Counted from the first letter of the stretch, positions 4,748-63,926 are shown. The stretch is 64,000 nucleotides of DNA from Candidatus Moraniibacteriota bacterium (GCA_026396275.1 JAPLXC010000004.1:1193-65192), one strand, 5' to 3'. Program-made: numbers and translations. The notes: generated from the letters alone by a model not told the origin.

Positions 4748-5962
4748 ATGAAATTTTCCGATATTTTCAAACTTTCAACCAGAATGTTCAAAGCGAGAAC
4801 TTCGCGCACGCTTCTTACGATTTTAGGCATGAGTATTGGAATCGGTGCTATTTTATTCCTGGTATCGCTTGGATACGGCTTGCAGAAAACCTTACTTAAT
4901 AAGATCACTACTTCCGACGCGCTGCTTACTCTGGATGTGACTGAAGCCAAATCAGCAACCGTTTTTCTTAATCGCGAGACCCTCAAAGTGATGGCAGAAA
5001 TGGAAGGGGTAGGGGAAGTAAGTCCCGCTTATCAGTTGAACGCCCAGGGACGCCTTGGCGATCTTTCAGCTGATTTTTCTGCCGTAGTGGTAAAGCCGTC
5101 ATTTCTAAAATTGGGGGGATATCGGGTAAGTCAGGGGCGCTTACTGAATGACGAAAGTCCTCAGGAAATTGTGGTTACTTCAACGGTCTCCCGCGTATTT
5201 GGGAAAAATGCGGATGAGATAATTGGAAAAGAAATAAAGTTTAGTTTTTTGGTGCCCGAGCAGGACAAAACAGGAGAAGTATCAAAAAATTCGCAAGTCA
5301 AGACAAAACGGGTGGAATCCGACAAAGCATACGTAGTAGCCGGCGTCATTGAAGGGGAGGATAGCATTATATATATCAATTCCAAGTCCCTTGATAATTT
5401 TTCCATTGATCATTTTAGCCAGGTTAAAGTGAAATGCAGAACGAATCAGGCGTTGGGGTTAGTTCGGGATCAGCTCATTAGCCAGGGATTTTTAGTATCG
5501 GCACTTTCCGATACGGTTGAGGAAGCAAACAAAGTGTTCAGGGCCATTCAGATTGTGCTAATGCTCTTTGGAGTTGTTGCTCTTGTAGTAAGCGCTATCG
5601 GGATGTTTAACACAATGACTATTGCTCTTTTGGAGCGGACGGAGGAAATCGGGATAATGAAGTCCATTGGCGCTTCCAATGCGGGAATATCTTTAATATT
5701 CGTTATGGAATCGGCTATTATGGGATTTTTGGGAGGAGTATGCGGTGTTTTTATCGGCTTTGTCAGCGGGGAGGTTTTTAATGGACTGATAAATTTTATT
5801 GCCCGGCGTTTTGGAGGAGAATCAGTGGACTTGTTCTACATTCCTTTGTGGTTCGTGCTACTTATCATTCTTTTTGCCGGTTTTGTTGGCTTTTCCACCG
5901 GGTTTATTCCGGCCAGACGGGCAAGCCACATTGATCCTCTGGAAGCTTTGAGGTATAAGTAA
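4748..5962 (+). CDS. FtsX/MacB-family ABC permease with a large extracytoplasmic domain
   Basis: One N-terminal TM, then a ~220-aa loop, then three C-terminal TMs. Translationally coupled to the ATPase (4-nt gap). Confidence 0.8.
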   Translation: MKFSDIFKLSTRMFKARTSRTLLTILGMSIGIGAILFLVSLGYGLQKTLLNKITTSDALLTLDVTEAKSATVFLNRETLKVMAEMEGVGEVSPAYQLNAQGRLGDLSADFSAVVVKPSFLKLGGYRVSQGRLLNDESPQEIVVTSTVSRVFGKNADEIIGKEIKFSFLVPEQDKTGEVSKNSQVKTKRVESDKAYVVAGVIEGEDSIIYINSKSLDNFSIDHFSQVKVKCRTNQALGLVRDQLISQGFLVSALSDTVEEANKVFRAIQIVLMLFGVVALVVSAIGMFNTMTIALLERTEEIGIMKSIGASNAGISLIFVMESAIMGFLGGVCGVFIGFVSGEVFNGLINFIARRFGGESVDLFYIPLWFVLLIILFAGFVGFSTGFIPARRASHIDPLEALRYK

Positions 5963-5966
5963 AGCT

Positions 5967-6806
5967 ATGAAAATTCTTAGCGGAAAAAGAGCAGCTCTAA
6001 AAATATTAAATAATCTTGAAGTCAACATCAGGAAATTACCCGCCGCTCCCGGACTGGCAGTGCTTTTAATTGGAGACGATAAACCCTCACATTTATATGC
6101 CCGCTTAAAACAGGAAGCAGCAAAAAAAATAGGAGTTCGTTTTTATCTTGTTAAATTTAAAGAGAATGCTGCCGAGAGAAAAATTATTGAGAAAATATCA
6201 GTGCTTAACAAAAACGGAAAAATAAACGGAATTATAGTTCAGCTTCCACTGCCCTCAAAATTCAACGCACGGAGAATTATCAAAGCCATTGATCCGGAAA
6301 AAGACGTAGACGGATTTCATCCGGAAAATATGAAGCTGTTTTTGAAAAGCAAAGAAAGATTCTGGCCGGTTTTTCCGCGGGCAATTGTTAAACTGATTGA
6401 AGAAAGTCGTCTTAAACTTTTAGGAAAAAAAGCAGTGGTTTTAGCAAATTCGCAAAGTTTCGGGAAGATAATGGTGGCAGCTTTAGGGAAGAAAAAAATA
6501 AGAGCCAAATATATCTTGTTTAAAAAAGTTAAGGAGAATGTTAAGTTAATCAAAAAAGCAGACATCATTGTGGTTGCAATGGGAATTCCAAATCTCGTAA
6601 AAGGGAAAATGATTAAAGAGGGTGCAGTAGTAGTTGACGGAGGAATTACGAAAAGAGGAAAGAAGGTACTAGGAGATGTTGATCGAGAGTCCGTAAAATA
6701 CGTGGCTTCCTATCTTTCCCCGGTTCCCGGAGGAGTTGGGCCAGTAACGGTAGCCTGCCTTTTTTGGAATGTTTACTTAGCCACTAAAGAACAACTCAAG
6801 GATTAA
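5967..6806 (+). CDS. folD: Bifunctional methylenetetrahydrofolate dehydrogenase/cyclohydrolase
   Basis: FolD family motifs: LLIGDDKPSHLY, GIIVQLPLP and a C-terminal GGVGPVTVA. Confidence 0.85.
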   Translation: MKILSGKRAALKILNNLEVNIRKLPAAPGLAVLLIGDDKPSHLYARLKQEAAKKIGVRFYLVKFKENAAERKIIEKISVLNKNGKINGIIVQLPLPSKFNARRIIKAIDPEKDVDGFHPENMKLFLKSKERFWPVFPRAIVKLIEESRLKLLGKKAVVLANSQSFGKIMVAALGKKKIRAKYILFKKVKENVKLIKKADIIVVAMGIPNLVKGKMIKEGAVVVDGGITKRGKKVLGDVDRESVKYVASYLSPVPGGVGPVTVACLFWNVYLATKEQLKD

Positions 6807-6937
6807 GAGATTAAGTAAAAAACTGATTGTTCCAGATAACTACGATCGCTGCCAAGTAGAATAATTGTTTTTGGCAAAGTCGGCTTTATAAAATCTTCCT
6901 TTTGACGGAGGGTTTTTTTGTTGATAAACTTAATAGT

Positions 6938-12407: not shown

Positions 12408-12567
12408 ATTATAGTGTTATCCCTTAAGGAACAGCGACTTTACGGTGTGAATAAAACGAATCTTACAAAAAAGATCAGGCGAGAACCCTGTTCTTTAATT
12501 TTCTTAATATTTAGATTATTCCACTTGGCAACGATCGCGGCTATCTGGAATAATCAGTTTTTTTACT

Positions 12568-13011
12568 TTATTCTCCGATAATCTGCAAAGCGATTTTTCG
12601 CGGGCGGGAACGGTCAAGTTCTACGGCAAAAATTCTTTGCCAAGTTCCCAGTTGAAGCTGATTCTTAACGATGTTGAGAAAAGTCGAAGTGGGGAGATGA
12701 ATGGATTTCACGTGAGCGTGGCCGTTGGAGCATTCATTGTCGCACATGTTAACAGTACGGATTTCAAAATTGTCGTGAAGATATTTATAGGTTCGGGGCG
12801 CCAATCTTTCCAAAAGCACTTTCATGTCCTTGATGAGCAATGGTTCAGCTTCGTTGACGATAATGGCCATGGTAGTATGGAGCGACTGGATATTTATCAC
12901 TCCGTTTTTGATACCGGCTTCTTTTATTTTCTTCTGGATTTTTTCGGTGACGTCGATGAAATCCAGAGTAGCGTTAGTCTTAAGGTTAATAATGTGATTA
13001 ATGATTTTCAT
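12568..13011 (-). CDS. YjbQ/UPF0047 family protein (secondary thiamine-phosphate synthase-like)
   Basis: Length and motifs (NGHAHVKS, LQLGTWQRIF) fit the YjbQ family. Confidence 0.55.
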   Translation of the reverse strand: MKIINHIINLKTNATLDFIDVTEKIQKKIKEAGIKNGVINIQSLHTTMAIIVNEAEPLLIKDMKVLLERLAPRTYKYLHDNFEIRTVNMCDNECSNGHAHVKSIHLPTSTFLNIVKNQLQLGTWQRIFAVELDRSRPRKIALQIIGE

Positions 13012-13973: not shown

Positions 13974-14209
13974 TGGGCACACCAAGATTCGAACTTGGGA
14001 CCTCGTCATTATCAGCTTGCCCCGCACTAAAATTCAATCTTTGTTTATACTTTTAGTGGGCGATGGAAGACTCGAACTTCCGACCTCGTCATTATCAGTG
14101 ACGCGCTCTAACCAACTGAGCTAATCGCCCAAATACTTCTTGAATTTTTAGTGCGGGGTGAACGCTCTATGCCTGCCGGCAGGCAGGTAACCAACTGAGC
14201 TATGTGCCC
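13974..14209 (-). tRNA. Interrupted tRNA-Ile(GAT)-like gene: 5' part (14163..14209) and 3' part (13974..14019) separated by ~139 nt that contain a complete tRNA-Ile. Possible intron-containing or split tRNA, or a pseudogene
   Basis: The 5' part reads GGGCACATAGCTCAGTTGGTTA, then a 20-nt insert holding a 16-nt perfect palindrome, then GAGCG. The 3' part reads CTGATAATGACGAGGTCCCAAGTTCGAATCTTGGTGTGCCCA. Acceptor (GGGCACA/TGTGCCC) and T-stem pair perfectly. The insert is flanked by CCCCGCACTAAAA / TTTTAGTGCGGGG. The 5' strand of the anticodon stem is not cleanly recoverable. Confidence 0.4.
14057..14130 (-). tRNA. tRNA-Ile (anticodon GAT), intact, nested inside the interrupted tRNA locus
   Basis: Manual fold: acceptor GGGCGAT/ATCGCCC, D-arm GCTC-AGTTGGTTA-GAGC, anticodon arm CGTCA-CTGATAA-TGACG, T-arm GGAAG-TTCGAGT-CTTCC, discriminator A. 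No encoded CCA. Confidence 0.85.
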
Positions 14210-14216
14210 TTATCCG

Positions 14217-14289
14217 TGGACCGTGCCGGAATCGAACCGGCTGCCTCCGCAGTGCAAATGCGGCGCTCTACCAGGTGAGCTAACGGCCC
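14217..14289 (-). tRNA. tRNA-Ala (anticodon TGC)
   Basis: Manual fold: GGGCCGT-TA-GCTC-ACCTGGT-AGAGC-G-CCGCA-TTTGCAC-TGCGG-AGGCA-GCCGG-TTCGATT-CCGGC-ACGGTCC-A. Confidence 0.85.
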
Positions 14290-16814: not shown

Positions 16815-17831
16815 ATGAATATAAAGGTAAGGAAGATAAGGGAAGATGCTAAAGTTCCAATTAGGGCATCTGATGGTGCAGTAGGATATGATGTTTTTGC
16901 TTCAAGGGTACTGGATAAATTTACCAAGGAAGTAATTCAGGATTTGCCGGTAGAAATACTTGGTGGCGCTAGTGTATTAATCGGTATTGGAGTAAAAATG
17001 GCTGTGCCCTGGCCGTATGAGTGCCAAGTTAGACCCAGGAGTGGTCTTGCGAGTAAATTTGACATCGAACTTTCTAATTCTCCAGGAACAATAGATCCCG
17101 ACTTCAGGGGCGAAGCAGGTGTTCTTTTGAGAAATAGAGGAAAAGAAACTTTTGTTGTGGAAAAGAATATGAGAATTGCTCAATTAATTTTCTCTAAAGT
17201 CGAAATCCCGATTTTAGAAGAAACGAAAGAGCTCCCTGCAACTAGGAGGGGAACTGGCGGTTTTGGATCAACAGGACTTCATGGAGATGGATTAGGGACT
17301 GATGAATATAATGAATACATAAAAGAAATGGATAGGTATTATATGAGAGTGGTTCTTGCAGTAGCGGATCGCTCCACATGTGTCAGGGGGGTAAAAAAAG
17401 TAAATGGTAAATATGAAAGAGATAAAAAGGGAAAATTGGTTGGCCAGAATCGCAGATTCGGTTGTGTGATTGTGAAGAATGATAATATCCTTGCTCAAGG
17501 TTTTAATGACCAATATTACGGTTCTCCAAAATGTGCTGACGCAGGATGTTTGAGGGAGGAGTTGAATATTCCCTCTGGTACGCAAATTGAAAAATGCAGA
17601 GCAATGCATGCCGAGTGGTGGGCATTCACTAATGCAGGTAAAATGGATAGCTCGCCGACACTTAAAGGTGCTACTGTCTATGTCAATGCGGAACCATGCG
17701 AAATATGCGCAAAGATGATTGTTGGTTTTGAGATTGATACAGTTGTTTTACTAAAAGGTATTTATCCAACTAATGGCATCAGGATTTTAAAAGAAGGAGG
17801 AGTGAATATAAGGTATATTGAAATTAATTAA
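16815..17831 (+). CDS. Fusion protein: N-terminal dUTPase-like domain plus C-terminal dCMP/cytidine deaminase zinc-binding domain
   Basis: N-terminal half has dUTPase motifs (GYDVFAS, GTIDPDFRGE, RRGTGGFGSTG). C-terminal half has the deaminase signature HAEWWA...PCEICAKMI. Confidence 0.7.
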   Translation: MNIKVRKIREDAKVPIRASDGAVGYDVFASRVLDKFTKEVIQDLPVEILGGASVLIGIGVKMAVPWPYECQVRPRSGLASKFDIELSNSPGTIDPDFRGEAGVLLRNRGKETFVVEKNMRIAQLIFSKVEIPILEETKELPATRRGTGGFGSTGLHGDGLGTDEYNEYIKEMDRYYMRVVLAVADRSTCVRGVKKVNGKYERDKKGKLVGQNRRFGCVIVKNDNILAQGFNDQYYGSPKCADAGCLREELNIPSGTQIEKCRAMHAEWWAFTNAGKMDSSPTLKGATVYVNAEPCEICAKMIVGFEIDTVVLLKGIYPTNGIRILKEGGVNIRYIEIN

Positions 17832-17840
17832 GACCTAGAA

Positions 17841-17875
17841 AGGCTCTTAGTTTGAATAAACTAAGAGCTTTTTCC
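17841..17875 (+). terminator. Rho-independent terminator
   Basis: gctcttag / ctaagagc stem followed by TTTTT. Confidence 0.5.
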
Positions 17876-17891
17876 TTTATTAAGCCGTTTT

Positions 17892-17920
17892 TTGACAAGT
17901 TTGGCTAAAGGCGGTACAAT
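17892..17920 (+). promoter_or_regulatory. Candidate sigma70 promoter TTGACA-17-TACAAT
   Basis: Read directly, 25 nt upstream of the dCMP deaminase start. Confidence 0.45.
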
Positions 17921-17944
17921 GAAATAACTGATTACTAACTTCCT

Positions 17945-18469
17945 ATGGCTAAAAAAGCTTTAAAAAAGAAAAATAAAAAGAGCGAGGAAAAGTATATTCG
18001 TCCGTCTTGGGATGAGTATTTTTTAGATCTAGTAGAAGCTGTTGGAAAAAGAGCTACCTGTGATAGAGGGAGAACAAGCTGTATAATTGTTCGCGAAAAA
18101 AGAATTCTTTCCACCGGTTATGTCGGTTCACCAATCGGAGCCAAGCACTGCGACGATGCGGGGCATGAGATACACACGGTTATCCAAGAGGATGGCACTC
18201 AATCTCGGCATTGCATCAGAACCAGCCACGCGGAGCAGAATGCTATTGCCAATGCTGCCAGATTCGGTATGCCTCTGGAAGGCGGAACACTTTATGCCCA
18301 TATGGCTCCCTGCTACACTTGCGCCAAAATGATTATAAACTCCGGGATAAAAAGAGTGGTCTGCCGGGTTGATTATCATGGCGCCAAACGCGCTAAAGAA
18401 ATTTTCAAGGAATGCGGGATTGAATTTGAACAGATTGAAGATAAAATGCAAACTTATAAAGATATGTAA
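17945..18469 (+). CDS. dCMP deaminase (ComEB-type)
   Basis: HAEQNAI...PCYTCAKMIINSGIKRVV. Confidence 0.8.
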   Translation: MAKKALKKKNKKSEEKYIRPSWDEYFLDLVEAVGKRATCDRGRTSCIIVREKRILSTGYVGSPIGAKHCDDAGHEIHTVIQEDGTQSRHCIRTSHAEQNAIANAARFGMPLEGGTLYAHMAPCYTCAKMIINSGIKRVVCRVDYHGAKRAKEIFKECGIEFEQIEDKMQTYKDM

Positions 18470-18531
18470 TTCAAACGTACTACTTTTTCTGGTGTATGCT
18501 AAAAAAGCAGCACGCTTACAAAAAGTCAAAA

Positions 18532-19083
18532 ATGAGAAAAATAATCGCCATACTTGGATTACCCGGAGCTGGTAAAACCGAAGTTATAAATTATCTTATA
18601 AAAAAATACAACTGGCCGAAAGTTTATTTTGGCGATGTTACTTTTGATGAAGTTAAAAGGCGCGGATTGGAAATAAATGAGAAAAATGAAAGAACGGTGC
18701 GAGAAGATTTGCGCGCAAAATATGGAAGGTTGCATTATGCGTCGCAGGTAATAAAAAAGATTGAAGCGTTGCCGTCCGACACAAATGTCCTTGTGGAGAG
18801 TTTATACGACTGGAGGGAATATCTTTTTTTCAAAGAAAAATTTGGAAAGGAATTTATGACAATTGCGACTTATGCTTCGCCTGAAACTAGGTATGAGAGG
18901 CTGTCAAAAAGGCCAGAAAGGCCATTGACTCCGGAAGTAGCCCAAAGCCGGGATTATGCTCAAATTGAGAATCTTTTTCAAGCCGGACCAATTGCGATGG
19001 CGAATTATACCATAAATAATGAAGGTACATTTGAAGAACTTTATAGTCAGGTTGATGAGATAATAGAAAATATAAATAAATGA
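18532..19083 (+). CDS. P-loop deoxynucleoside monophosphate kinase-like protein (resembles phage T4 gp1-type dNMP kinase)
   Basis: Walker [12 protein letters not shown]. The C-terminal [16 protein letters not shown] resembles, from my memory of the T4 gp1 sequence, its C-terminal segment. The ORF could start earlier, at 18496. Confidence 0.5.
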
Positions 19084-19874
19084 AACAATATCTAGATTTA
19101 TTGCAAAAAATAATGGAAGAAGGGGTTAACAAAGAAAATAGAACCGGTATTGATACAAGAAGTATTTTTGGTTATCAATTGCGTTTTAATCTGGAAGAAG
19201 GATTTCCGCTTCTTACGACCAAAAAAATGCATCTGAAGTCCATTATTCACGAACTAATTTGGTTTTTGAAAGGCGAAACGAATATAAAATATCTTCACGA
19301 CAATGGAGTAACGATCTGGGACGAGTGGGCGAATGAAAAAGGGGAACTCGGTCCGGTTTATGGCTATCAATGGCGGCACTGGAAAAAATATGAGGGAGGG
19401 GAAGTTGACCAGATCAGCGAGGCGATTGAAAAAATAAAAAACAAGCCAAATGACCGAAGAATAATAGTGAGCGCCTGGAATGTTGGGGAAATTGAAAAAA
19501 TGGCGCTCCCTCCCTGCCATTTATTATTTCATTTTTATGTAGCCGATGGAAAATTATCCTGTCTAATGTATCAGCGAAGCTGTGATACTTTTCTGGGAGT
19601 GCCGTTCAATATTGCATCTTATGCACTTCTTACTATGATGTTTGCGCAGGTTTGCAGTTTGAAACCGGGAGAATTCGTACATATTTTGGGTGATACCCAT
19701 ATCTATCATAATCATTTTGATCAAGTGAAACTGCAATTAAGCCGGGAACCAAAAAAACTGCCGACTATGAAAATCAATCCGAAAGTGAAAAATATTTTTG
19801 ATTTTAAATACGAAGATTTTACACTGGAAGGATATGATCCCCATCCGGCGATTAAAGCGCCAATCGCGGTTTAG
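19080..19874 (+). CDS. thyA: Thymidylate synthase
   Basis: [51 protein letters not shown]. Confidence 0.9.
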
Positions 19875-19878
19875 AAAT

Positions 19879-19934
19879 GTCACTCCGGGCTTGATCCGGA
19901 ATCTAATTAGATTCTGAAACAAGTTCAGAATGAC
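19879..19934. mobile_element. MITE-like palindromic element family B (GTCA[CT]TCCGG...CCGGAATCTA...GAATGAC), thyA-folA spacer
   Basis: gtcactccgggcttgatccggaatctaattagattctgaaacaagttcagaatgac. Nested hairpins. Confidence 0.55.
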
Positions 19935-19947
19935 ATATTAAAATGTA

Positions 19948-20436
19948 ATGAAATCGACTATCTCTATCATCGCAGCTATTGCCGAAAAAAATCGGGCTAT
20001 CGGCAAAGATAATAAATTGCTTTGGCATATTCCGGAAGACCTAAGACGTTTTAAAAATCTCACCACTGGACACGCAATAATAATGGGGCAAAAAACTTTT
20101 GAGTCGCTTGGAAAACCTCTGCCAAACCGCACCAATATTGTTATTTCGAACAATCCCGATTTTAATCCCCAAAATGTTATTGTGACAAGATCAATTGAAG
20201 AATCTCTGAAAAAAGCTAGGGAAATAGAGAAAGAAGAAATATTTATTTGTGGCGGAGGATTAATTTACCGACAATTTCTACTACTGGCTGACAAATTGTA
20301 TTTAACTATTATTGAAGGAAACTTTGAAGCTGATACTTTTTTTCCAGATTATTCGGAGTTTAGTAAAATTGTTAAAGAAGAAAAAAGTTCAGATGAGAAA
20401 TATAATTATAAATTTGTGGAGTTAGTCAGAGAATAA
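19948..20436 (+). CDS. folA: Dihydrofolate reductase
   Basis: ISIIAAIAEKNRAIGKDNKLLWHIPEDLRRFKNLTTGHAIIMGQKTFESLG. Confidence 0.85.
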   Translation: MKSTISIIAAIAEKNRAIGKDNKLLWHIPEDLRRFKNLTTGHAIIMGQKTFESLGKPLPNRTNIVISNNPDFNPQNVIVTRSIEESLKKAREIEKEEIFICGGGLIYRQFLLLADKLYLTIIEGNFEADTFFPDYSEFSKIVKEEKSSDEKYNYKFVELVRE

Positions 20437-20440
20437 AAAT

Positions 20441-21055
20441 ATGAAAAAAAACAAGAAACGGAGATTGTTCATTGTCTTTGAAGGACTTGATGGTTCCGGC
20501 CAGACAACGCAAATAAACTTATTAGAAAAATATCTAAAATTAAAAGGAAAAAAAGTGCATATGACAGCTGAACCATCAAGCAGTTTAATTGGCGGATTAA
20601 TTCGGGCAGTTTTGACGCATCATTGGAAATTGAGCAACACCGGATTACAGCTTCTCTATTGCGCTGACAGGGCGCATCATCTTGAAACAGAAGTGTACCC
20701 GGCGCTTGCGAAAGGAAATATCGTGTTATCAAGCCGCTACTTTTTTTCAACCATCGCCTTTGGCTCTTTGAATAATGACACTAGATGGCTGGAAAAAATC
20801 AATGAAAAATTTCCAAAACCTGATGTCACTTTTTTCATCAATGTTTCTCCAAAAGAGTGCATTAAAAGATTAGATCTTTCAAGATTCAGAAAAGAAATTT
20901 TTGAAAAGGAGGAAAAAATGGGAAAGGTCTTAAGAACCTATATTAAAATAGGTAAAAACAAAAAATATAAAAATTTCTTTACTATCAACGGGGAACAGCC
21001 CGTCGAAAAAATTTCACAGGATGTAATTAAAATTATTGACAAATTTATTAGATAA
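20441..21055 (+). CDS. tmk: Thymidylate kinase
   Basis: P-loop FEGLDGSGQTTQ and the DR..H LID region. Confidence 0.85.
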   Translation: MKKNKKRRLFIVFEGLDGSGQTTQINLLEKYLKLKGKKVHMTAEPSSSLIGGLIRAVLTHHWKLSNTGLQLLYCADRAHHLETEVYPALAKGNIVLSSRYFFSTIAFGSLNNDTRWLEKINEKFPKPDVTFFINVSPKECIKRLDLSRFRKEIFEKEEKMGKVLRTYIKIGKNKKYKNFFTINGEQPVEKISQDVIKIIDKFIR

Positions 21056-21129
21056 TATTACACTAAAAAGCCGATAATTTTGTAAGGAAGAAATAAAAGC
21101 TTTTTGAAAATTTAAGGAGGTGGGAGAAG

Positions 21130-21852
21130 ATGATTTTTGAAGATAGTAATACTGTTATGGTTAATGGCCGGATTGATGATGGTTACAGAGAAGCAATGCT
21201 TCTTTGCGTGAGAAATGGCTGGGATTTTGTAGTAAAAGGCGGGAGTTATGTCGGGCAAATTAGAAAACAGTTGGAAAATGTCCAGATAATAATAGGGGAT
21301 CCGAGTAAAAGACCGCTGGCTCCAGTTTTGCCGCCTGGAATTCCCGCCAGTACCAGTGATGAAAAAATAGATAAATATTTTGCCGAATATCTGATGAGCA
21401 CCGAGGTCAAAGAAAATGAGGAATATACCTATGGCACCTACATTGTTCCACAAGTTCCGAAAATAATCGAAATATTGAATAAGGCAAAAGGAAACACTAA
21501 TCAGGCCTGCATAAGCATCGGGGATATTAATTCAATTAATCTTCCTGATCCACCCTGTTTAAAGCTTATAAGCTTTAAGGTTGTAAAAGGAAAATTGATT
21601 ATGACAGTTTTTTTTAGATCTTGGGACTTATATGCAGGTCTGCCAGAAAATCTGGGAGGGCTGCAACTACTCAAAGAATTTGTTTTTGCTCATCTCGATT
21701 TTGAGTGCTCTGACGGGAAAATGATTGCTTATAGCGACGGGCTTCACCTCTATGAACAGTACTTTGATTTAGTAAATGTTCTGAATGTGGATAAAGTTGT
21801 TATTAGCAAAATAGCGGCAAAAGATAAGGAGGAATTTTCAAAAACTCTTTAG
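21130..21852 (+). CDS. Divergent thymidylate synthase-superfamily paralog (candidate pyrimidine nucleotide hydroxymethylase/methylase)
   Basis: Catalytic-core motifs retained: PPCLKLISFKV (PPC nucleophile), GKLIMTVFFRSWDLYAGLPEN (compare QRSxDxxLGxPFN), DGLHLY. The N-terminal ~95 aa are unrelated to ThyA. Confidence 0.5.
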   Translation: MIFEDSNTVMVNGRIDDGYREAMLLCVRNGWDFVVKGGSYVGQIRKQLENVQIIIGDPSKRPLAPVLPPGIPASTSDEKIDKYFAEYLMSTEVKENEEYTYGTYIVPQVPKIIEILNKAKGNTNQACISIGDINSINLPDPPCLKLISFKVVKGKLIMTVFFRSWDLYAGLPENLGGLQLLKEFVFAHLDFECSDGKMIAYSDGLHLYEQYFDLVNVLNVDKVVISKIAAKDKEEFSKTL

Positions 21853-56212: not shown

Positions 56213-56433
56213 TGGTTTGTGTTTTTAGCCGTGTTTCTCCGCCTACGCAGAAGACCGCGGACATGAGACCGGGGATGAATGTTATATAACTCTTCTGCTT
56301 CGACGGATTTCACTCCGCCGAAGAAAAAGGCAATACCGGATGCGCAAGTTTGCGGAGATTCATTTTCCTACTCCATTATAGCATAAATTTCTGATTATTT
56401 GGTTATGCACACGCATTCATCGCGAAGCGCTTT

Positions 56434-56444
56434 TGTGGTATAAT
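56434..56444 (+). promoter_or_regulatory. Extended -10 (TGTGGTATAAT) in the 300-nt divergent intergenic region. A perfect hairpin agagacc-t-ggtctct follows at 56479..56494
   Basis: Read directly. Confidence 0.35.
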
Positions 56445-56510
56445 TGAATCAAACAAACGAAGTAAGATTTAAGCCAATAGAGACCTGGTCTCTCTTTTGG
56501 GATTTGAAAA

Positions 56511-59402
56511 ATGAAAGATAAAGGAAATATTATTAATGTATATTCGAGCGATCAAGGAAAAAACAGGCCCCGTCTTTTCGACATGCTTAAGGAAAATTCC
56601 GGTTCTGGTGAGAAAATAACTAGTGAGGAGAAAAAATTACCTGAAAAAAGCGTTGGGGCAACTTCAGGTTCGGAATTTAAACCGCTGGAGAAGCCAAGCG
56701 GAATTGATTCCGAAAAGGGGATAGAAAGTGAACAGCTAAAAGCCGTTCCGGAAAAACCGTTTGATGAGAAGCAAAAAGAGCGGCTGCTTAGTAAGGAAAA
56801 TAAAATATTTTTAGATGATTTTAAAGAAAAGATTGAAAAAGGAATCCTGAAAAAACTTAACAAATCGGATGAGAAAGAAAATGAAAAATTGGAAGCTAAA
56901 AAAATTAGTAAAGCGCTAGAAACCCTTTCTGTACTCAATAAAGGCAGAACATTAGCAATCGAGAGAGGTGATAATTGGTCAGATATTAATATTCGCAAGA
57001 CGCAACCGGATGAGGTTGAGGAATTAAGTCCAGAAGGATTAAAATTAGTTCTGTCCAAAGAAGAAGAATACAATGCAGGACTAAGAAAATTAAGTGAAAA
57101 AAAGGAAAAAGAAAAAGAATTAACAAAAAGGGATAAGGGAAAGAAAGAAGGAAAGAAAATAACTTTCAAAACAAAAAAAGAAACTAAGCAAGTTAAAGAA
57201 GAAAAAACCGAACTGTTAAAGAGTTCTATTGTTGTGGCCCTAGAAAAAACTAGCGGAATGCCGCAGGAGAGTATTAAGAAGGAGAAAGAAGCTGATAAGG
57301 AAACACCAGAAACATCTACAGCGAAGGAAGATATAAGCGCTGAAGACGCAAAAAAACGCAACGAGGAATATATCCGCAAGCACCGGGAGGAAATGAAAGA
57401 TTATCACCCTCGTATGAAGGCGGAAGAGGTTGAAAGAAAAAGAGCGGAAAAAGCCCAGAAAGAAATTGAAGCTACAGAATCAGATAAAGAAAAGGCGAAG
57501 CGCGAGTACAAAGAAACGCAGGAAAGGCAGGAAAAATTAAGGCAATCAAAAGAAGAACTAGATCAAGCCCGCCCCGACTATGCCGAGATGGATTATAAAA
57601 AAAGAAAATTATGGATGAATGTGAGAAATTATTTCGGCAATATTATCGGGAAGGGTTGGAAAAGCAGATTTAGGAATGACATAGAAACTGAAAAGGCAAA
57701 AGATTCAAGCGGCGAAGAAAGGGAAGTTATCAAAGACGAGGATGTCGCCTATATGGAAGCGATCTATTACAACAAGCTCTTTAACTACAAAAACGCAGTT
57801 TTGGAAGATATTCGGGAGCGGGGACTTTCCGGAGAAGAAATTAAAAAAGAATTGGCCAAAGAAATACTCTTTTTAGATCACGATGAACCGCTTAATTTAT
57901 GCAATGCCCGCACGCAGGCCAGAACTGAATATCTAAAGCAGGATAAAAGTTTGTTTCATCTAGCGGAAATGACAATTACCAGATTCCTTAATTTCTACAA
58001 CAAGCTCCCGCGCAAAACAAAATGGGCAATCACCGCCGGAGTGTGGGCAAGCGGATCAGCAGCTTTAATTGGCGGAAAAAGGATTTTAGCCGGCCTCATA
58101 ATGGGTGCGGGAACAGCGCAATTTTTAGATGTCGTAGAAAGACAACTTGACTTTCGAAAGTCCCGCAGGGAAACAGAGAAGATGCTAGCGGGATTTGAAG
58201 GAAGAGATGACCAACTGAAGGATTTGGATAAGATTCTTAAAGAAAAAATTTTTCAGTCCGATGCCAAGTTTCAGCGCCGCAAATGGCTGTCATTCTATAA
58301 TAGAGCAGTGGGAACGCTAGTCGCGACTGCAATTTGCTCCGGCGCTATGGCGGAAATTACTCACTGGCTTTCGGAAAAACTGGGACTGGCTGTTCCCGAA
58401 AAACTTCCTTCAGAAGAAAAAGTAACAGCGCCGGAAGGGGCAATAGCACCGGAAGAAACGCCAGCGGAAGTTGTGTCACCGGTGGAACTGGCGGTGGAAA
58501 AGGGAAGCAGTTTGGAGGGGTCAATAATAAATTATCTTGAGCAAAATCCGGATTTAATGGAAAAGTATCAAGGACTTCATGGCGGGCGGGAATTTAATTC
58601 CGGGCAAATCGCCCACCGGATGGCGCTGGAGTGGGCAAAGGATAACCCGAATTTCCCCGAAGGGCCGCCGAGTTTAATCCATCCGGATACTAAAATAACC
58701 ATTGATCCGGAGAATTTAAAGATAATAAATGTTGAAGACCCGCAAGACCTCGGATATTTGCCGGAAAAAGAGGAGTTGGCAGGAAGCGTGCGAGAAAAGA
58801 TAGCTGAAGAAATAAAAAAGCCAGAATTTGCCCGCGCGGTTGAACTTGAGCACGCGGGACTGCGCGAATCCCCGGGTGATTTTGCGGCGGAAATTGACGA
58901 GTTGAACCAAAGCCAGATTGAAGAAGCGGAAAATCGTTTTTCTGAACTGGATCAGGATGTTAAAGAAGCTCAAGAAGATATTCTTCGCCGTTACGATACC
59001 AACTATGACGGGCGCTTGGATGACTGGGAAAAGCAAGACGGAGGCGCGGAGGCGGATCTTGAGCGAATTGAATCAATGGAGCAGCAGAAAGAAATGGAAG
59101 CGGGAAAAATAGAACAACTGGCAAATTCCATCGGTGATTTTAAGTCCAATGTGACGGCACTGCGTAAAGGACTCTCATTGGGTGATATCAATAACTGGAG
59201 CGCAATGAAGAATATGACATTTGAAAATGCGCAGGATACCATGGATATTTCTTTTCGCAAAAAACTTTCTTTGCTAGTCAAGTACTGCCGTGATGAACTC
59301 AAACTGGGAAATACCGCTCGCCCTCGATCCGAGGAGACACTGGAGGAATGGACCCGGAGAATTGCCCGGATTGCTCCGCCAATAAAAGATAAGGCATTTT
59401 AA
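56511..59402 (+). CDS. 963-aa Lys/Glu-rich coiled-coil protein with two central TM helices; hypothetical
   Basis: Long KE-rich low-complexity stretch. TMs WAITAGVWASGSAALIGG and LVATAICSGAMAEITHWL. No enzymatic motif. Confidence 0.6.
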   Translation: MKDKGNIINVYSSDQGKNRPRLFDMLKENSGSGEKITSEEKKLPEKSVGATSGSEFKPLEKPSGIDSEKGIESEQLKAVPEKPFDEKQKERLLSKENKIFLDDFKEKIEKGILKKLNKSDEKENEKLEAKKISKALETLSVLNKGRTLAIERGDNWSDINIRKTQPDEVEELSPEGLKLVLSKEEEYNAGLRKLSEKKEKEKELTKRDKGKKEGKKITFKTKKETKQVKEEKTELLKSSIVVALEKTSGMPQESIKKEKEADKETPETSTAKEDISAEDAKKRNEEYIRKHREEMKDYHPRMKAEEVERKRAEKAQKEIEATESDKEKAKREYKETQERQEKLRQSKEELDQARPDYAEMDYKKRKLWMNVRNYFGNIIGKGWKSRFRNDIETEKAKDSSGEEREVIKDEDVAYMEAIYYNKLFNYKNAVLEDIRERGLSGEEIKKELAKEILFLDHDEPLNLCNARTQARTEYLKQDKSLFHLAEMTITRFLNFYNKLPRKTKWAITAGVWASGSAALIGGKRILAGLIMGAGTAQFLDVVERQLDFRKSRRETEKMLAGFEGRDDQLKDLDKILKEKIFQSDAKFQRRKWLSFYNRAVGTLVATAICSGAMAEITHWLSEKLGLAVPEKLPSEEKVTAPEGAIAPEETPAEVVSPVELAVEKGSSLEGSIINYLEQNPDLMEKYQGLHGGREFNSGQIAHRMALEWAKDNPNFPEGPPSLIHPDTKITIDPENLKIINVEDPQDLGYLPEKEELAGSVREKIAEEIKKPEFARAVELEHAGLRESPGDFAAEIDELNQSQIEEAENRFSELDQDVKEAQEDILRRYDTNYDGRLDDWEKQDGGAEADLERIESMEQQKEMEAGKIEQLANSIGDFKSNVTALRKGLSLGDINNWSAMKNMTFENAQDTMDISFRKKLSLLVKYCRDELKLGNTARPRSEETLEEWTRRIARIAPPIKDKAF

Positions 59403-59433
59403 TTAAAGTAATTTTTTTAATTTTTTAAAATTT

Positions 59434-59745
59434 ATGGACCAATTATCCGACAGCCAGAATCCGGCCGTCAAGCAATTAATCAAAGAGCTGGGCATAGAAA
59501 AACTTCCCCAGGACGCCCAAAGCGACATAATTATCAAAGCGTCAGAAGCGCTTCTCAAGAGAATTTTTCTGGAAACGATGGAACAGTTGGGCGAAGAAAG
59601 CCGGACCCAGTACGAAAAGATGATTATTGACGGCGCCTCGCCGGCCCAAATGGAAGAATTTCTGAAAGCCAGCATTCCAAATTACGAAGGGGTTGTCCAA
59701 AAAGTAATCGATGAGTTTAAAGAGGAAATAAAAGGTAATTTATAA
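59434..59745 (+). CDS. Hypothetical small acidic protein
   Basis: ORF with SD. No motif. Confidence 0.45.
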   Translation: MDQLSDSQNPAVKQLIKELGIEKLPQDAQSDIIIKASEALLKRIFLETMEQLGEESRTQYEKMIIDGASPAQMEEFLKASIPNYEGVVQKVIDEFKEEIKGNL

Positions 59746-59820
59746 CTTAATAACTTAACTGCCTGACTGCCCACAACTCAATTTCAAAGTTTCCGGTTGT
59801 AGGTTGTTAGCGCTTAGTTT

Positions 59821-60255
59821 ATGTCCAACCTCGAACCAATTGAAGAAAAAGATCTTAACATAGAGGGAAAATTCAAAGGCGAGAAAAAAGAGACGCCTCA
59901 ACCAGAGGCAGAAAAAGAAATTTTTAAAATTGAAAAAGAAACGCCGCCTGAAACAAACCCGGCTGAAAAAGAGGGCGCTTACGGAAAAATACTTTCTAAA
60001 ATAAAACAATTGGGCCAGCCGGTTTTAGGCGAGGAAGAAATAAAATCCGACGCCGAGAGTGTTTTTCAAAAGAACGACGCCCAGAGCCAAATCCAGCATC
60101 TGGTGGACATAGCATTGCAAAAAGGAGTAGTCCACGCGGTAAAAGTGGCCAGTCACCTGGAAAATAATTATGTGCTGGATATGTTTCATGATAAACTGCT
60201 AGCAGATGAGCTCCACAAGGCGCTTACTGAAAAAGGACTGATAAAAGATCTGTAA
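59821..60255 (+). CDS. Hypothetical protein
   Basis: ORF only. Confidence 0.45.
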   Translation: MSNLEPIEEKDLNIEGKFKGEKKETPQPEAEKEIFKIEKETPPETNPAEKEGAYGKILSKIKQLGQPVLGEEEIKSDAESVFQKNDAQSQIQHLVDIALQKGVVHAVKVASHLENNYVLDMFHDKLLADELHKALTEKGLIKDL

Positions 60256-60291
60256 ATTGTAAGAAAGTAAAACAAAAATAGCAACAAAAAA

Positions 60292-62781
60292 ATGTTTCCC
60301 TTTGATCTCAACGCGATTTTTATCCCAGCTGTTGCGCTTTTGTCACTGGCAGTGTTTACCAGCGGCGCTTATTTGATGTTTCGCAGCTTTTTTCTTTTCC
60401 GGGCCCAGATCAGTCGTTCTATAAACACGGACTTGGAAGTAGTGCGGGTGTCCCGGCTGATGATAAAGAAAGAGGAACAAGTGAAAGAAGGATGGAAGGA
60501 GGAAATCGGGGCGATGGAACAGCTCTTAACCACACTTTCAAATGTAAAAGAAAGGAAATCATTTTTTTTCCGCTTTCTTTATGACGAACCGAGCATTGTG
60601 TTGGAAATCGCCAAGCCCGCCCAAAGCGAAGAAATATTTTTCTACATTGCCATTCCCAAAAAGTTCAGAGAATCCGTGGAAAAGCAAATCCACGCCTATT
60701 TTCCCAATGCGTCGCTCGAAAAAGTTCCCGATTACACCATTTTTTCCCCAGTTGGCTTTACGGCGGCGGCGGTGCTCACGCTTAAAAACAAATCAGCCCT
60801 TCCCTTCAAGACCTATGAGACAATGGAAGTTGATCCGCTTAATGAACTTTCCAATGCTCTTAGCAAGTTAAAAACTGAAGAAGAAGGAGCGGCCATCCAA
60901 ATTGTGCTTCGGCCGGCCGGCTTGCAGTGGAAAAGCTTCGGCCGGACAATCGCCCATAAAATGCAGCAGGGGAAACGCCTAAGGGATGTTTACTCGCCGT
61001 CTCTTGCCAGAAACTTAAGTAAGGAATTGCGGGGAATGATGGCTAGCACCAGCCAGAAAGAATTTTCTCAAAAAGAAAGAGAGGTAATTCAGCTTACCCC
61101 CGAAGAGCAGGAGCTTATCAAATCAATTGAAAGAAAGTCCAATAAAGTCGGATTCCGGGTTAATATCCGCCTGCTGTCGGCCGCGGCAACTCAACAAAAA
61201 GCCGAAGAAATCCTCTCTCATCTGGAAAACGCCTTTATTCAATTTGAAAACTCTGACATTAATCATCTGGTGGTGAAAAAAAGAGTCAAGGCAAAACGAA
61301 TTGCTTTTAATTACATCTTCAGGGAGTTTAGCGAGCAAGATTCAATTATTCTCAACACCGAAGAAATAGCCAGTATCTATCATTTTCCTATTTCCACCAC
61401 CGAAACGCCGAAAATAAAATGGCTCAAGGCCGGCGCGGCTCCGCCTCCGCCCAACATTCCCGCAAGCGGGATTCTTTTGGGCTACAACGATTATCGCGGG
61501 ATGAAAACGGACATTCGCCTGGCGGAAGATGATCGCCGCCGCCACTTGTATGTTGTCGGGCAGACCGGCACCGGAAAATCCGCCTTTCTTCAGGAAATGG
61601 CTAAGCAGGATGTGAAGAGCGGAAAAGGAGTATGCTTTATTGATCCTCACGGGGATGCGGTGGCTGATATTCTGACGGCCGTGCCCAAAGAACGGGCTGA
61701 AGATGTGATCTTTTTTGATCCTTCCGACAGTGAGCGCCCCTTCGGGCTCAATATGCTGGAATACGACCGCCCGGAGCAGAAAACGTTCGTGATTAATGAG
61801 ATGATTAATATCTTTGACAAACTTTATGATTTGAAACAGACCGGTGGGCCGATGTTTGAACAGTATATGCGAAACGCCATGCTGCTGGTGATGGAAGATC
61901 CGGCTTCCGGGTCAACGCTTATGGAAATTCCCAAGGTTCTGGCCGACGAAAAATTCAGAAGGATGAAGCTGGCCAAATGCGCCAATCCGGTAGTAAGTGA
62001 CTTCTGGCTTAAGGAAGCGGAGAAAGCCGGCGGGGAAGCGGCGCTGGCCAATATGGTGCCCTACATCACTTCCAAACTAACCCAGTTCATCGCCAATGAC
62101 CTGATGCGTCCCATTATCGCCCAGCAGAAAAGCACTCTGAACTTCCGCCAAATTATGGACGAGAAAAAGATTCTTCTCATTAATCTTTCCAAGGGCAAGA
62201 TCGGCGAAATGAACAGCTATCTTTTGGGAATGGTGATCGTGGGAAAAATTCTGATGTCGGCTCTTTCCCGGGTGGATATTCCCGAGAGTGAAAGAGGGGA
62301 CTTTTACCTTTACATTGATGAATTTCAAAACGTGACAACCGATTCCATTTCTCAAATTCTCTCTGAAGCCCGCAAGTACCGCCTCAATCTCACCATGGCT
62401 CATCAGTTTATCGGGCAGCTGCGTGAGGAAATTTCCAAAGCGGTCTTTGGAAACGTGGGATCAATTTGCGCTTTTCGGGTCGGACCGGAGGACGCGGAAT
62501 TTTTGGAAAAGCAATTTGCGCCGATATTCACCGTCAATGATCTAGTAAACGCCGACAATTATAATTGCTTCGTGCGTCTTTTAATTAGCAATGAATCCAC
62601 CAAGCCCTTCAATATGAAGACCTATCCGCCTACCGGCGGCGACCAGGAGGTTGCCAACCATCTCAAAGAACTCTCCCGCCTCAAATACGGCCGCGACGCG
62701 CAAATTGTCAACCGCGAGATTCTGGAACGGATAAAACTGGCCAACACGCCCGGCGAGAACGAACACCTCCCGGCTTTGTAA
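60292..62781 (+). CDS. Membrane-anchored P-loop ATPase of the VirD4/TraG/TraD (type IV coupling protein) / FtsK-HerA superfamily
   Basis: Two N-terminal TMs. Walker A VVGQTGTGKSAF followed by CFIDPHGD and FFDPSDSERPFGLNML. Walker B LYIDEFQNV. ARKYRLNLTMAHQ...QL conserved block. The ~380-aa N-domain is atypical. Confidence 0.6.
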   Translation: MFPFDLNAIFIPAVALLSLAVFTSGAYLMFRSFFLFRAQISRSINTDLEVVRVSRLMIKKEEQVKEGWKEEIGAMEQLLTTLSNVKERKSFFFRFLYDEPSIVLEIAKPAQSEEIFFYIAIPKKFRESVEKQIHAYFPNASLEKVPDYTIFSPVGFTAAAVLTLKNKSALPFKTYETMEVDPLNELSNALSKLKTEEEGAAIQIVLRPAGLQWKSFGRTIAHKMQQGKRLRDVYSPSLARNLSKELRGMMASTSQKEFSQKEREVIQLTPEEQELIKSIERKSNKVGFRVNIRLLSAAATQQKAEEILSHLENAFIQFENSDINHLVVKKRVKAKRIAFNYIFREFSEQDSIILNTEEIASIYHFPISTTETPKIKWLKAGAAPPPPNIPASGILLGYNDYRGMKTDIRLAEDDRRRHLYVVGQTGTGKSAFLQEMAKQDVKSGKGVCFIDPHGDAVADILTAVPKERAEDVIFFDPSDSERPFGLNMLEYDRPEQKTFVINEMINIFDKLYDLKQTGGPMFEQYMRNAMLLVMEDPASGSTLMEIPKVLADEKFRRMKLAKCANPVVSDFWLKEAEKAGGEAALANMVPYITSKLTQFIANDLMRPIIAQQKSTLNFRQIMDEKKILLINLSKGKIGEMNSYLLGMVIVGKILMSALSRVDIPESERGDFYLYIDEFQNVTTDSISQILSEARKYRLNLTMAHQFIGQLREEISKAVFGNVGSICAFRVGPEDAEFLEKQFAPIFTVNDLVNADNYNCFVRLLISNESTKPFNMKTYPPTGGDQEVANHLKELSRLKYGRDAQIVNREILERIKLANTPGENEHLPAL

Positions 62782-62894
62782 CAAAAGGATTCCCAAACAA
62801 AAATTCCTAAAGTCCGGCTTTAGGGATTTTTAAGGTTTCTTACGTTACACTTTATTCCGATCTGGGTGAAGTGTATTAAAAGAATTTACAAATA

Positions 62895-63926
62895 TTATTG
62901 CAAGTTAAGAAAAACCGCTCCACCTTCAGCGGTTATGAAGTAGGCCTTGTTATTTTTGGGATCAATTGAGAGCTGACGGGCGCCTTTGAGAAATTCGTGA
63001 TAGTACTGGGAAATTATTTCTCCGTTTTTCCTCAGCACCACCAGCCGGGAATTGGAAATGTCAAGAACGTATAATTTTTCCATCTGGCGGGTGGTTGCCA
63101 CTTTATCAAAGTGAATGGGTGTGGCGCTTTTTTCCACTGCCAGCTCCTGCTTTTTTCCCCGAAACAACTTTACCAGTTCCGCCCCGGTGGCAAGGTACAC
63201 ATTTTCATCTATGGCGATATCTTCCGCATCACCGAGATTCATCTCTTCTTTTAACCAGTTGGTTTTGGGCCCGAATCCGCCCTCCGCGCGGGGGTAACGG
63301 TATATTTGGTTAGAATTGACGTCAACCAGATAAAGATAGGTAAGATACGAAGCCAAAGATTGAACCTTGGCGTTTTCCGGTATCCCAATTTTATTCTCTT
63401 TAATATCGCGGGAAATGGTGCCAAAGGAGAAAATTTTGTTTCGATCAGTGAGAAGAAAAATCAGTTTAAGGTCCTCCATATAAGTTGAGTCTAGAACATT
63501 TCCGGCTTCTTGAGGCAGAGAAAATTCGCTGGTGCCGCCGTTTTCCTCCCGCTGAATTATTTTTTGCGGCGCGATAAGGAAAAGATTATTATTAGAAAAT
63601 TCGGCGGTGGTTATTTTTTCACTAACAGGAATTACCTCCACCCCGGCGGAAAGATTGATATTTTTATCAGCGGCTAGAACTTCCCGCTGGCTTTTTTCCT
63701 GCGGCACGGCGGGAGGGAAAGTACTTCTTTTATTTTTTATGCCGATTATTACCAGCGGGACGATTAAAATAGCCAGAAGGATAAGGATTCCGTACAGGCG
63801 CTGCTGATAAGTCAGGACGGAAAATGCAGATCTCGCTTTTTTGAGATCAGGAAGAAACTGGCGGGTTTTTTCGCGGAAAGCAGTCAGGGTTACTTTTCCG
63901 AAAGGCGCAAAAATTTTATCCTTCAC
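62895..63926 (-). CDS. Membrane-anchored hypothetical protein
   Basis: N-terminal TM ILILLAILIVPLVIIGI. No motif. Confidence 0.5.
   Translation of the reverse strand: MKDKIFAPFGKVTLTAFREKTRQFLPDLKKARSAFSVLTYQQRLYGILILLAILIVPLVIIGIKNKRSTFPPAVPQEKSQREVLAADKNINLSAGVEVIPVSEKITTAEFSNNNLFLIAPQKIIQREENGGTSEFSLPQEAGNVLDSTYMEDLKLIFLLTDRNKIFSFGTISRDIKENKIGIPENAKVQSLASYLTYLYLVDVNSNQIYRYPRAEGGFGPKTNWLKEEMNLGDAEDIAIDENVYLATGAELVKLFRGKKQELAVEKSATPIHFDKVATTRQMEKLYVLDISNSRLVVLRKNGEIISQYYHEFLKGARQLSIDPKNNKAYFITAEGGAVFLNLQ

Follow-up and report, generated by a model that had tools for sequence, protein, structure and literature searches.

A VirD4/TraG/TrwB-superfamily ATPase and its small partner S144 in a core-genome region of Candidatus Moranbacteria

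The 64,000-nucleotide stretch of Candidatus Moraniibacteriota bacterium DNA analysed here (GCA_026396275.1 JAPLXC010000004.1:1193-65192; hereafter the window) carries, toward its 3' end, four co-oriented open reading frames (ORFs) encoding a giant protein, two small proteins and an 829-aa ATPase, and the question raised by this locus is what these genes specify together. An initial annotation, made from the sequence alone, proposed a self-contained minimal four-gene module for secretion or DNA uptake, and all four ORFs were recovered where it placed them (Table 1). The 829-aa protein belongs to the VirD4/TraG/TrwB superfamily, and the preferred reading, at a probability of roughly 0.6, is that it is an "orphan" type IV coupling protein (T4CP) of the Patescibacteria paired with the 144-aa protein encoded directly upstream (S144), the most likely client of the pair being a chromosomal type IV secretion system (T4SS). 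The ATPase and S144 form a two-part unit, which in one clade is fused; the block's other two products, the giant protein and one of the DUF5663 family, do not belong to any conserved apparatus. Orthologues number in the thousands, and this locus is an ordinary example of them.

Domain architecture of the ATPase

Every T4CP-type motif block previously quoted for the ATPase is present and in the order given: GQTGTGKS (residues 423-430), IDPHGD (450-455), FFDPSD (474-479), PFGLNML (483-489), LYIDEFQNV (673-681) and RKYRLNLTMAHQ (694-705). These blocks go beyond chance resemblance, since the Pfam families TrwB_AAD_bind (30.8 bits against a cut-off of 20.5, residues 410-726) and, barely, TraG-D_C (22.3 bits against a cut-off of 22) both exceed their thresholds. 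Among the NCBIfam models, the TraD and CD1115 VirD4-like families match the protein (CD1115 at 2.1e-8 over residues 393-734), and a PDB search with a 42-sequence profile placed TrwB at the top (5e-8), followed by DotL and then HerA, with the sequence similarity to TrwB limited to the nucleotide-binding motifs. Residues G423, G426, K429, D676, E677, R694, K695 and Q705 are invariant across the 42 homologues, and the catalytic site is, as judged from these positions, intact. In the structural model of a homologue (P0138, not the window protein itself), a helical block (H593-H704) lies between Walker A and Walker B. The full-length model of a fused homologue (pLDDT 80.5) had full-length VirB4 as its best match, followed by HerA, TrwB and the VirB4 C-terminal domain; homologue model superposition gave TMt values of 0.62-0.67 for TrwB and 0.72 for the VirB4 C-terminal domain, and the Cagbeta-CagZ complex (8dol) was also among the fold matches.

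Other P-loop families fit less well. An identity as FtsK was rejected, as FtsK_SpoIIIE scored below its cut-off (E 0.04, 13.8 bits, cut-off 24) and covered only the P-loop (residues 412-436), with no gamma domain found in the protein. HerA was likewise rejected: HerA_C remained below threshold (17 bits, cut-off 22), HerA ranked under TrwB in the profile search, and none of the NurA, Sir2 and DUF4297 genes was present among the neighbours of the ATPase. The DUF87 match (26.3 bits) spans only 65 residues around the P-loop. None of the Pfam families CagE_TrbE_VirB, AAA_10 and TraC_F_IV was detected on the ATPase at E <= 1, and the NCBIfam VirB4_plasma model reached only 0.031, over the P-loop. 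On these scores the ATPase groups with neither FtsK nor HerA, and its assignment as a T4CP, on which the family scores and the profile ranking agree with the initial annotation, stands.

Classical coupling proteins such as TrwB of R388, VirD4 and TraD/TraG resemble the ATPase in their P-loop motor, into which a helical domain is probably inserted in the ATPase too (to go by the homologue model), and in the families that it matches, but they possess two N-terminal transmembrane (TM) helices and lack its N-terminal domain of ~360 aa. Two such helices had been annotated for the ATPase as well; only one strong hydrophobic helix is found, at residues 8-30, and DUF8128 begins at about residue 37, therefore leaving space for a single TM helix only. 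Among 150 representatives of the family, one TM helix was counted in 89, the most frequent architecture, and two in 7.

The N-terminal domain corresponds to Pfam DUF8128 (PF26449), an assignment that precomputed Pfam annotation gives both for P0001, whose sequence is identical to that of the ATPase, and for every top homologue. The ~380-aa N-domain reported earlier is therefore real, but it is not atypical as had been supposed, being typical of the DUF8128-bearing subfamily of T4CPs. An AF2 model of window residues 39-400, built from an alignment of the window fragment to full-length database homologues, reached a pLDDT of 90.6 and a pTM of 0.89. When this model was searched against the PDB with Foldseek, all 14 matches at E <= 1e-3 were to TrwK/VirB4 of R388 (E 1e-7 to 7e-5, TMq 0.41-0.46), the next match (1.4e-2) being ~200-fold weaker; this agrees with the VirB4-like placement of the domain that had been noted. 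In the same search no match was obtained to entries containing only the VirB4 C-terminal domain, to TrwB or to HerA, and it is therefore the N-terminal domain of VirB4 that DUF8128 resembles. These comparisons of a predicted structure support a VirB4 N-terminal-domain-like fold for DUF8128. At the sequence level no such relationship appears: hhalign probabilities between DUF8128 and VirB4 N-domains are <= 4%, and a PDB profile search returned nothing. The ATPase is thus similar to VirB4/TrwK in its two-domain layout, with an N-terminal domain followed by a C-terminal ATPase, but differs in lacking both N-domain sequence similarity and the Pfam matches expected of VirB4, and in clusters where both ATPases are present its family matches the T4CP.

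S144 and the conservation of the pair

The gene neighbourhood was surveyed in 82 distinct loci from species genomes carrying various Parcubacteria-group and Patescibacteria labels. S144 is directly upstream of the ATPase or fused to it in 52 of these loci, as a separate, immediately upstream gene in ~29 and fused N-terminally with the ATPase in 23. The fusions are ORFs of 908-968 aa without the TM helix; they form a large clade labelled Paceibacteria/Parcubacteria in which S144 takes the place of that helix. Homology between the fused N-terminal domain and stand-alone S144 was detected by hhalign (97.6%, E 3.7e-12), and the same fusion was found in 18 of the 150 independent database representatives, none of these 18 having a TM helix. 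In S144 the N-terminal half is acidic and varies, whereas the helical domain of ~55 residues at the C-terminus is conserved, with D120, H123 and D124 invariant across the family; by sequence S144 has no match in Pfam, NCBIfam, PADLOC, PHROG or the PDB. Both small proteins of the block, S144 and the DUF5663 protein, are acidic, as previously described (net charges -8 and -9 for the two), and no relationship was detected between them. The small helical proteins designated cluster 3, which occupy the same upstream position in loci labelled Uhr-, Falkow-, Komeili- and Magasanikbacteria, have no detectable relationship to either. Of the co-conservation suggested for the four-gene block, the part concerning S144 held across relatives; DUF5663 proved sporadic and the giant protein was confined to Moranbacteria, and S144 is the only neighbour broadly co-conserved with the ATPase.

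The S144 gene, separate in some loci and fused in others, is reminiscent of VirB3-VirB4 fusions, although VirB3 is a membrane protein and the small proteins upstream of the window ATPase are soluble and acidic. CagZ with Cagbeta, the adaptors IcmS/IcmW with DotL, and the TraI-TraJ pair of pIP501 are cases in which a small protein is encoded beside a coupling protein and binds it, acting as a regulator, an adaptor or a membrane tether. Neither S144 nor the DUF5663 protein has sequence or demonstrated structural similarity to these partners, and any analogy with them would be functional only.

The ATPase belongs to a very large family: searches gave 22,307 representatives at E <= 1e-3, and 5,922 (as 50%-identity clusters) when the limit was E < 1e-30. 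Among Moranbacteria the ATPase is 65-72% identical, compared with 35-43% for HolB, 27-42% for FtsQ and 43-53% for PMT_2 when identical pairs of genomes are compared. Another Moranbacterium keeps the genes in the order HolB, FtsQ, two PMT_2, giant, small, small, ATPase. The ATPase gene neighbours holB in Moranbacteria, where ftsQ is adjacent as well, and again in loci labelled Uhr-, Falkow-, Komeili- and Magasanikbacteria; the fused clade has it where the secY cluster ends, flanked by map and ndk. In loci L018-L030, L069, L072, L073 and L081 (labelled Uhr-/Falkow-/Komeili-/Magasanikbacteria, among others) the ATPase is followed by a conserved protein of ~200-260 aa (cluster 2, without an assigned family) and then by a long HolB-like gene. 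Because the HolB-like gene lies past the cluster 2 protein, the HolB linkage recurs in an arrangement other than that of the Moranbacteria. Set amid housekeeping genes, the ATPase gene belongs to the core genome, is inherited vertically and is under strong constraint.

Relatives, probable client and competing explanations

Outside the phylum, the cellular proteins most closely related to the ATPase are coupling proteins encoded in conjugation clusters. In tblastn searches against plasmids, C-terminal domains 31-35% identical to that of the ATPase were found, mostly on non-mobilizable plasmids. An 812-aa T4CP on the actinobacterial plasmid NZ_CP108778 (Embleya sp.) aligns to residues 69-779 of the ATPase across both domains (28% identity over 722 columns, E 5e-74), and its cluster, which has the typical make-up of monoderm conjugation loci, is ordered TrbL_4/VirB6-like, PrgI/VirB3, VirB4 (643 aa), T4CP, Replic_Relax and NlpC/P60. 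As the VirB4 of this cluster matches members of the ATPase family at only ~3e-4 at best, the window family is nearer to the T4CP than to VirB4 in a cluster that contains both. On the haloarchaeal plasmid pNVE500 of Natrinema, DUF8128 is a separate 395-aa gene (hhalign to the window domain 99.2%, E 7e-20). It is flanked by genes for a VirB4-like "conjugal transfer protein" on one side and a "TraM recognition domain" ATPase on the other, and a pilin gene lies upstream. From these two clusters it follows that DUF8128 plus motor constitutes the coupling protein of MPF-FATA-like systems. The Embleya protein shares with the window ATPase the succession of TM helix, DUF8128 and P-loop motor and is alignable with it end to end, and both plasmid systems share its Walker A, Walker B and AHQ motifs. 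The plasmid genes, however, stand beside genes for VirB4, PrgI/VirB3, VirB6-like, relaxase-like and cell-wall hydrolase proteins, whereas the window ATPase is chromosomal, surrounded by housekeeping genes and accompanied by a phylum-specific S144 that those systems lack.

Full-length homologues comprising both N-domain and motor (~22% identity) are also encoded by SP-10, G and related Bacillus myophages, and the family matches phrog_5156 at 1e-88. These phages are large and lytic; the phage G homologue is gp156, and that of SP-10 (L088, AB605730.1 128010-130541) has no TM helix and follows two small membrane proteins amid genes for DNA polymerase, ligase and other replication functions. The small membrane proteins are not related to S144 or DUF5663. 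Some family members (P0178, P0181-P0184, P0188, P0190, P0191 and P0194) reach 1,400-2,000 aa through P/A-rich, apparently disordered C-terminal tails of 900-1,200 aa with recurring short motifs, among them LPPIGAPPVD and ITDI.GGR. The tails contain no Pfam domain and have no similarity to the giant protein; they recall, by analogy, the partner-binding tails of DotL and TraD.

Orphan coupling proteins of this kind were described in 2025. Quinonero-Coronel et al. (2025; PMC12102498) report VirB4 in 2,417 of 3,035 Patescibacteria genomes and 5,713 VirD4-like T4CP homologues in 2,918 of them, or about two per genome, with only 148 located near virB4. Being likewise VirD4-like and rarely near virB4, the window ATPase and those orphan T4CPs very probably represent the same gene set, and the ATPase is therefore a known kind of gene. 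In the sections searched, that paper does not describe DUF8128, the VirB4-like fold, S144, the clade without a TM helix or the neighbouring DUF5663 and giant proteins, and neither DUF8128 nor DUF5663 was found to be mentioned in the literature searched; the new details are the conserved and sometimes fused S144 partner and the VirB4-like fold predicted for the N-domain.

Like other T4CPs, the ATPase would assemble as a ring and would use ATP to receive and hand over, or to pump, a macromolecular substrate. S144 may serve as its adaptor, regulator or localisation subunit, a role suggested by gene order and fusion. The most likely client would be the MPF-FATA-derived chromosomal T4SS of the phylum, encoded elsewhere in the genome. 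Wang et al. (PMC10633639) reported that no coupling protein or relaxase is recognisable in the essential T4SS cluster. A further pointer toward the T4SS comes from Moranbacterium GW2011_GWE2_35 (L001), where a 137-aa protein encoded directly downstream of the ATPase orthologue (12527-12940) matches Pfam T4SS_pilin at 25.1 bits, just below the 26.6 cut-off. This protein resembles ORFs of locus L027, which in turn match the "pilin" of the haloarchaeal (Natrinema) plasmid; the window has no counterpart of the gene.

Several observations weigh against a T4SS client. VirB4, VirB6, PrgI and relaxase genes were found within 10 kb of the ATPase in 0 of 82 loci, in searches whose sensitivity was limited by the Embleya and Natrinema queries used. 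It is unusual for a conjugation-type protein to be better conserved than genes of replication and division, and the fused clade dispenses with the TM helix. According to PMC12102498, T4CP homologues are more widespread in the phylum (2,918/3,035) than VirB4 (2,417/3,035), and the T4CP homologue of S. epibionticum is not essential although its T4SS is; for the orphan T4CPs the paper states that "exaptation cannot be ruled out". Activity, substrate and interactions are moreover predictions for all members of the ATPase family, and the roles proposed for S144, DUF5663 and the giant protein are putative, drawn from gene order and fusion. The same facts can be read as signs of an exapted motor that no longer docks on a T4SS and works with S144 at some housekeeping job, for instance the transport or processing of DNA or nucleoprotein in replication, segregation, division or nucleic-acid acquisition. 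This alternative, the main rival, is less probable than the preferred reading but clearly likelier than the two that follow. It would account for the core-genome contexts (holB and ftsQ in some lineages, map/ndk at the end of the secY cluster in another), for an ATPase conserved more strongly than HolB or FtsQ, for the missing helix of the fused clade, for the wider prevalence of the T4CP and its dispensability where the T4SS is essential (both as given in PMC12102498), and for the full-length homologues beside replication genes in lytic Bacillus myophages. It is harder to reconcile with closest cellular relatives outside the phylum that are coupling proteins within conjugation clusters, with a membrane anchor retained by most of the family, with the pilin-like gene adjoining the ATPase in L001 and with the long disordered tails of the DotL/TraD adaptor-binding type in some members; gene neighbourhoods inside one clade are, besides, non-independent observations.

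The proposal that the four genes are themselves a minimal export or DNA-uptake apparatus, with the giant protein as a membrane or structural component, draws on the tight, operon-like spacing and terminal hairpin of the block, on a gene order kept in all Moranbacteria loci with upstream sequence and on the central pair of hydrophobic G/A-rich segments kept in the giant homologues. The giant protein, however, is undetectable beyond Moranbacteria and scarcely alignable within them (no BLAST match to L001 or L006), the ATPase of a large clade lacks the TM helix, other classes have the ATPase with the small partner alone or with an unrelated small protein, and no polytopic channel protein, peptidoglycan hydrolase or pilin was found in the window. 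Since two of the three neighbours are not conserved and a channel component is missing, a four-gene apparatus is improbable, and the self-contained module originally envisaged is not supported. More improbable still is that the gene is left over from a mobile element or encodes a HerA/mad8-type ATPase of anti-phage defence. PADLOC mad8 does match the ATPase at E 8e-13 over residues 413-731, there are weak HerA matches and the DUF87 score noted above, and the plasmid homologues reside mostly on non-mobilizable plasmids; yet the mad8, HerA and DUF87 matches are confined to the P-loop core, the gene is vertically inherited, syntenic and extremely conserved, and the window offers neither mobility genes nor oriT-like or attachment repeats nor a clearly atypical composition for the block. 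The defence-ATPase identity was rejected on these grounds, the ATPase being a core gene that matches only through its P-loop core.

The reading of the ATPase as an orphan T4CP paired with S144 bears on a phylum whose epibiotic growth depends on a chromosomal T4SS. It gives the orphan T4CP a concrete anatomy, with a predicted VirB4-like N-domain, an intact motor and a conserved small partner able to replace the membrane anchor, and places it under stronger constraint than the neighbouring replication and division genes, so that the question of whether it feeds the T4SS or has been exapted becomes testable. The DUF8128-T4CP family also offers a starting point for working out the relationship between VirB4 and VirD4-type coupling proteins. 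A broader proposal, that DUF8128-T4CP plus S144 is a phylum-wide, near-essential two-component motor with a core job and also an intermediate between VirB4 and the classical coupling proteins, is rather doubtful. Were it true, the core job would be nucleic-acid handling tied to replication, division or uptake in auxotrophic epibionts, and the VirB4-like N-domain on a VirD4-like motor, occurring also in archaeal plasmids and Bacillus phages, would mark an evolutionary intermediate.

The remainder of the block and of the window

Features of the block are listed in Table 1. The gaps between the giant, DUF5663, S144 and ATPase ORFs are 31, 75 and 36 nt, a tight, operon-like spacing with a hairpin at the end. 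The intergenic region upstream of the giant ORF is the presumed promoter region of the block; a promoter scan found no more candidates than expected from shuffling (13 found vs 8.7 +/- 2.8). The hairpin is likely the terminator. Past it, a convergent ORF with a TM segment around residue 40 but no Pfam match (62895-63926, reverse strand) runs off the end of the window; its homologues (cluster 20) measure 801-859 aa and fill the equivalent convergent slot in six other Moranbacteria loci (L004, L005, L006, L011, L016 and L017).

Table 1. Features of the four-gene block in window coordinates
Feature	Position (nt)	Strand	Remarks
Divergent intergenic region, 298 nt	56213-56510		Between PMT_2 (reverse strand) and giant ORF; presumed promoter region
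Giant ORF, 963 aa	56511-59402	+	ORF call, ends TAA
Two weakly hydrophobic G/A-rich segments of giant protein	58020-58370	+	~aa 504-540 and 596-620
DUF5663 protein, 103 aa, acidic, helical	59434-59745	+	ORF call, ends TAA
S144, 144-aa acidic protein without Pfam family	59821-60255	+	ORF call, ends TAA
S144 conserved helical C-terminal domain	60082-60255	+	LD.FHD.L motif
T4CP-family ATPase, DUF8128 subfamily, 829 aa	60292-62781	+	ORF call, ends TAA
ATPase N-terminal TM helix (single)	60313-60381	+	aa 8-30; Kyte-Doolittle 2.06; followed by R31, R37
ATPase DUF8128 N-domain	60406-61491	+	aa 39-400; Pfam, AF2 model
ATPase P-loop motor domain	61504-62631	+	aa ~405-780
ATPase Walker A	61558-61581	+	
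ATPase Walker B	62308-62334	+	LYIDEFQNV
ATPase RKY...AHQ motif	62371-62406	+	
15-pair hairpin	62799-62831		Between ATPase stop codon and convergent downstream gene; likely terminator

The 103-aa protein matches Pfam DUF5663 (PF18908) at 38.2 bits (cut-off 23.7, E 2.3e-9) over residues 15-99. Homologues of it occur near the ATPase in Moranbacteria loci and in L009, L026 and L074, and they adjoin the ATPase in only ~11 distinct loci, so that the linkage is sporadic. The giant protein is rich in lysine and glutamate, as first annotated (27% K+E, 39% charged residues). A word-based search recovered only 4 homologues of it, and those recovered by jackhmmer were restricted to Moranbacteria loci, where identities are 22-26% over part of the length or no alignment is obtained, L001 and L006 being the two without a BLAST match. 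A large charged ORF nevertheless occupies its slot in 8 of the 8 Moranbacteria loci with upstream sequence, in the fixed order giant, DUF5663, 144-aa protein and ATPase, and the giant protein is Moranbacteria-specific, fast-evolving and fixed in position. The two TM segments formerly ascribed to it are weak in the window protein, with Kyte-Doolittle 19-residue maxima of 1.39 and 1.44, but the central pair does recur in Moranbacteria homologues (up to 1.9 in L004-L007) and may form a TM hairpin. From their place in the gene order, the DUF5663 protein (an adaptor or chaperone?) and the giant protein (a scaffold or cargo?) could be Moranbacteria-specific accessories of the ATPase. In L001, the positional counterpart of the giant protein (5276-9097, 1,273 aa) has no detectable similarity to it; putative DHH-phosphoesterase-like motifs (PDLDG...DHHGD) were spotted in this counterpart by eye.

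The block is set in a core-genome region of Candidatus Moranbacteria (Patescibacteria); the public database entries identical to its proteins derive from a MAG of that group. The ORFs scanned in the window are all housekeeping or envelope/transport genes: TGT, LeuRS, GlmS, BacA, NusG, L1, a dUTPase/deaminase/ThyA cluster, GatB, MiaA/MiaB, ThrRS, DnaE, RNases HII and III, MurD, MurA, MreB, glycosyltransferases, HolB, an FtsQ-like protein and two PMT_2 genes. No relaxase, pilin, integrase, transposase, VirB4 or VirB6 was present among them, in line with the earlier report that relaxase, pilin and integrase are lacking, and the view of the locus as chromosomal rather than a conjugative element is borne out by the housekeeping character of the whole window. 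A repeat scan yielded A-rich coding repeats only, with no oriT-like or attachment repeats, and the GC content of the block (0.385-0.461, against a window mean of 0.41) is not clearly atypical.

Elsewhere in the window, tRNA-Ile(GAT) and tRNA-Ala(TGC) genes lie side by side at 14056-14289 on the reverse strand. This pair usually sits in the 16S-23S spacer; no rRNA gene was detected by Rfam in the 64-kb window. A nucleotide-salvage cluster at 16815-21852 contains a dUTPase-deoxycytidylate deaminase fusion (338 aa), a second deaminase, a P-loop kinase, ThyA and a thymidylate-kinase-like gene, together with a second, divergent thymidylate-synthase-like ORF (21130-21852, Pfam E 1.6e-7). The leucyl-tRNA synthetase (6902-9889, 995 aa) has a weak Pfam match to Aminoglyc_resit (E 2.5e-6) over residues 421-484, a stretch just past the editing domain that may be an insertion.

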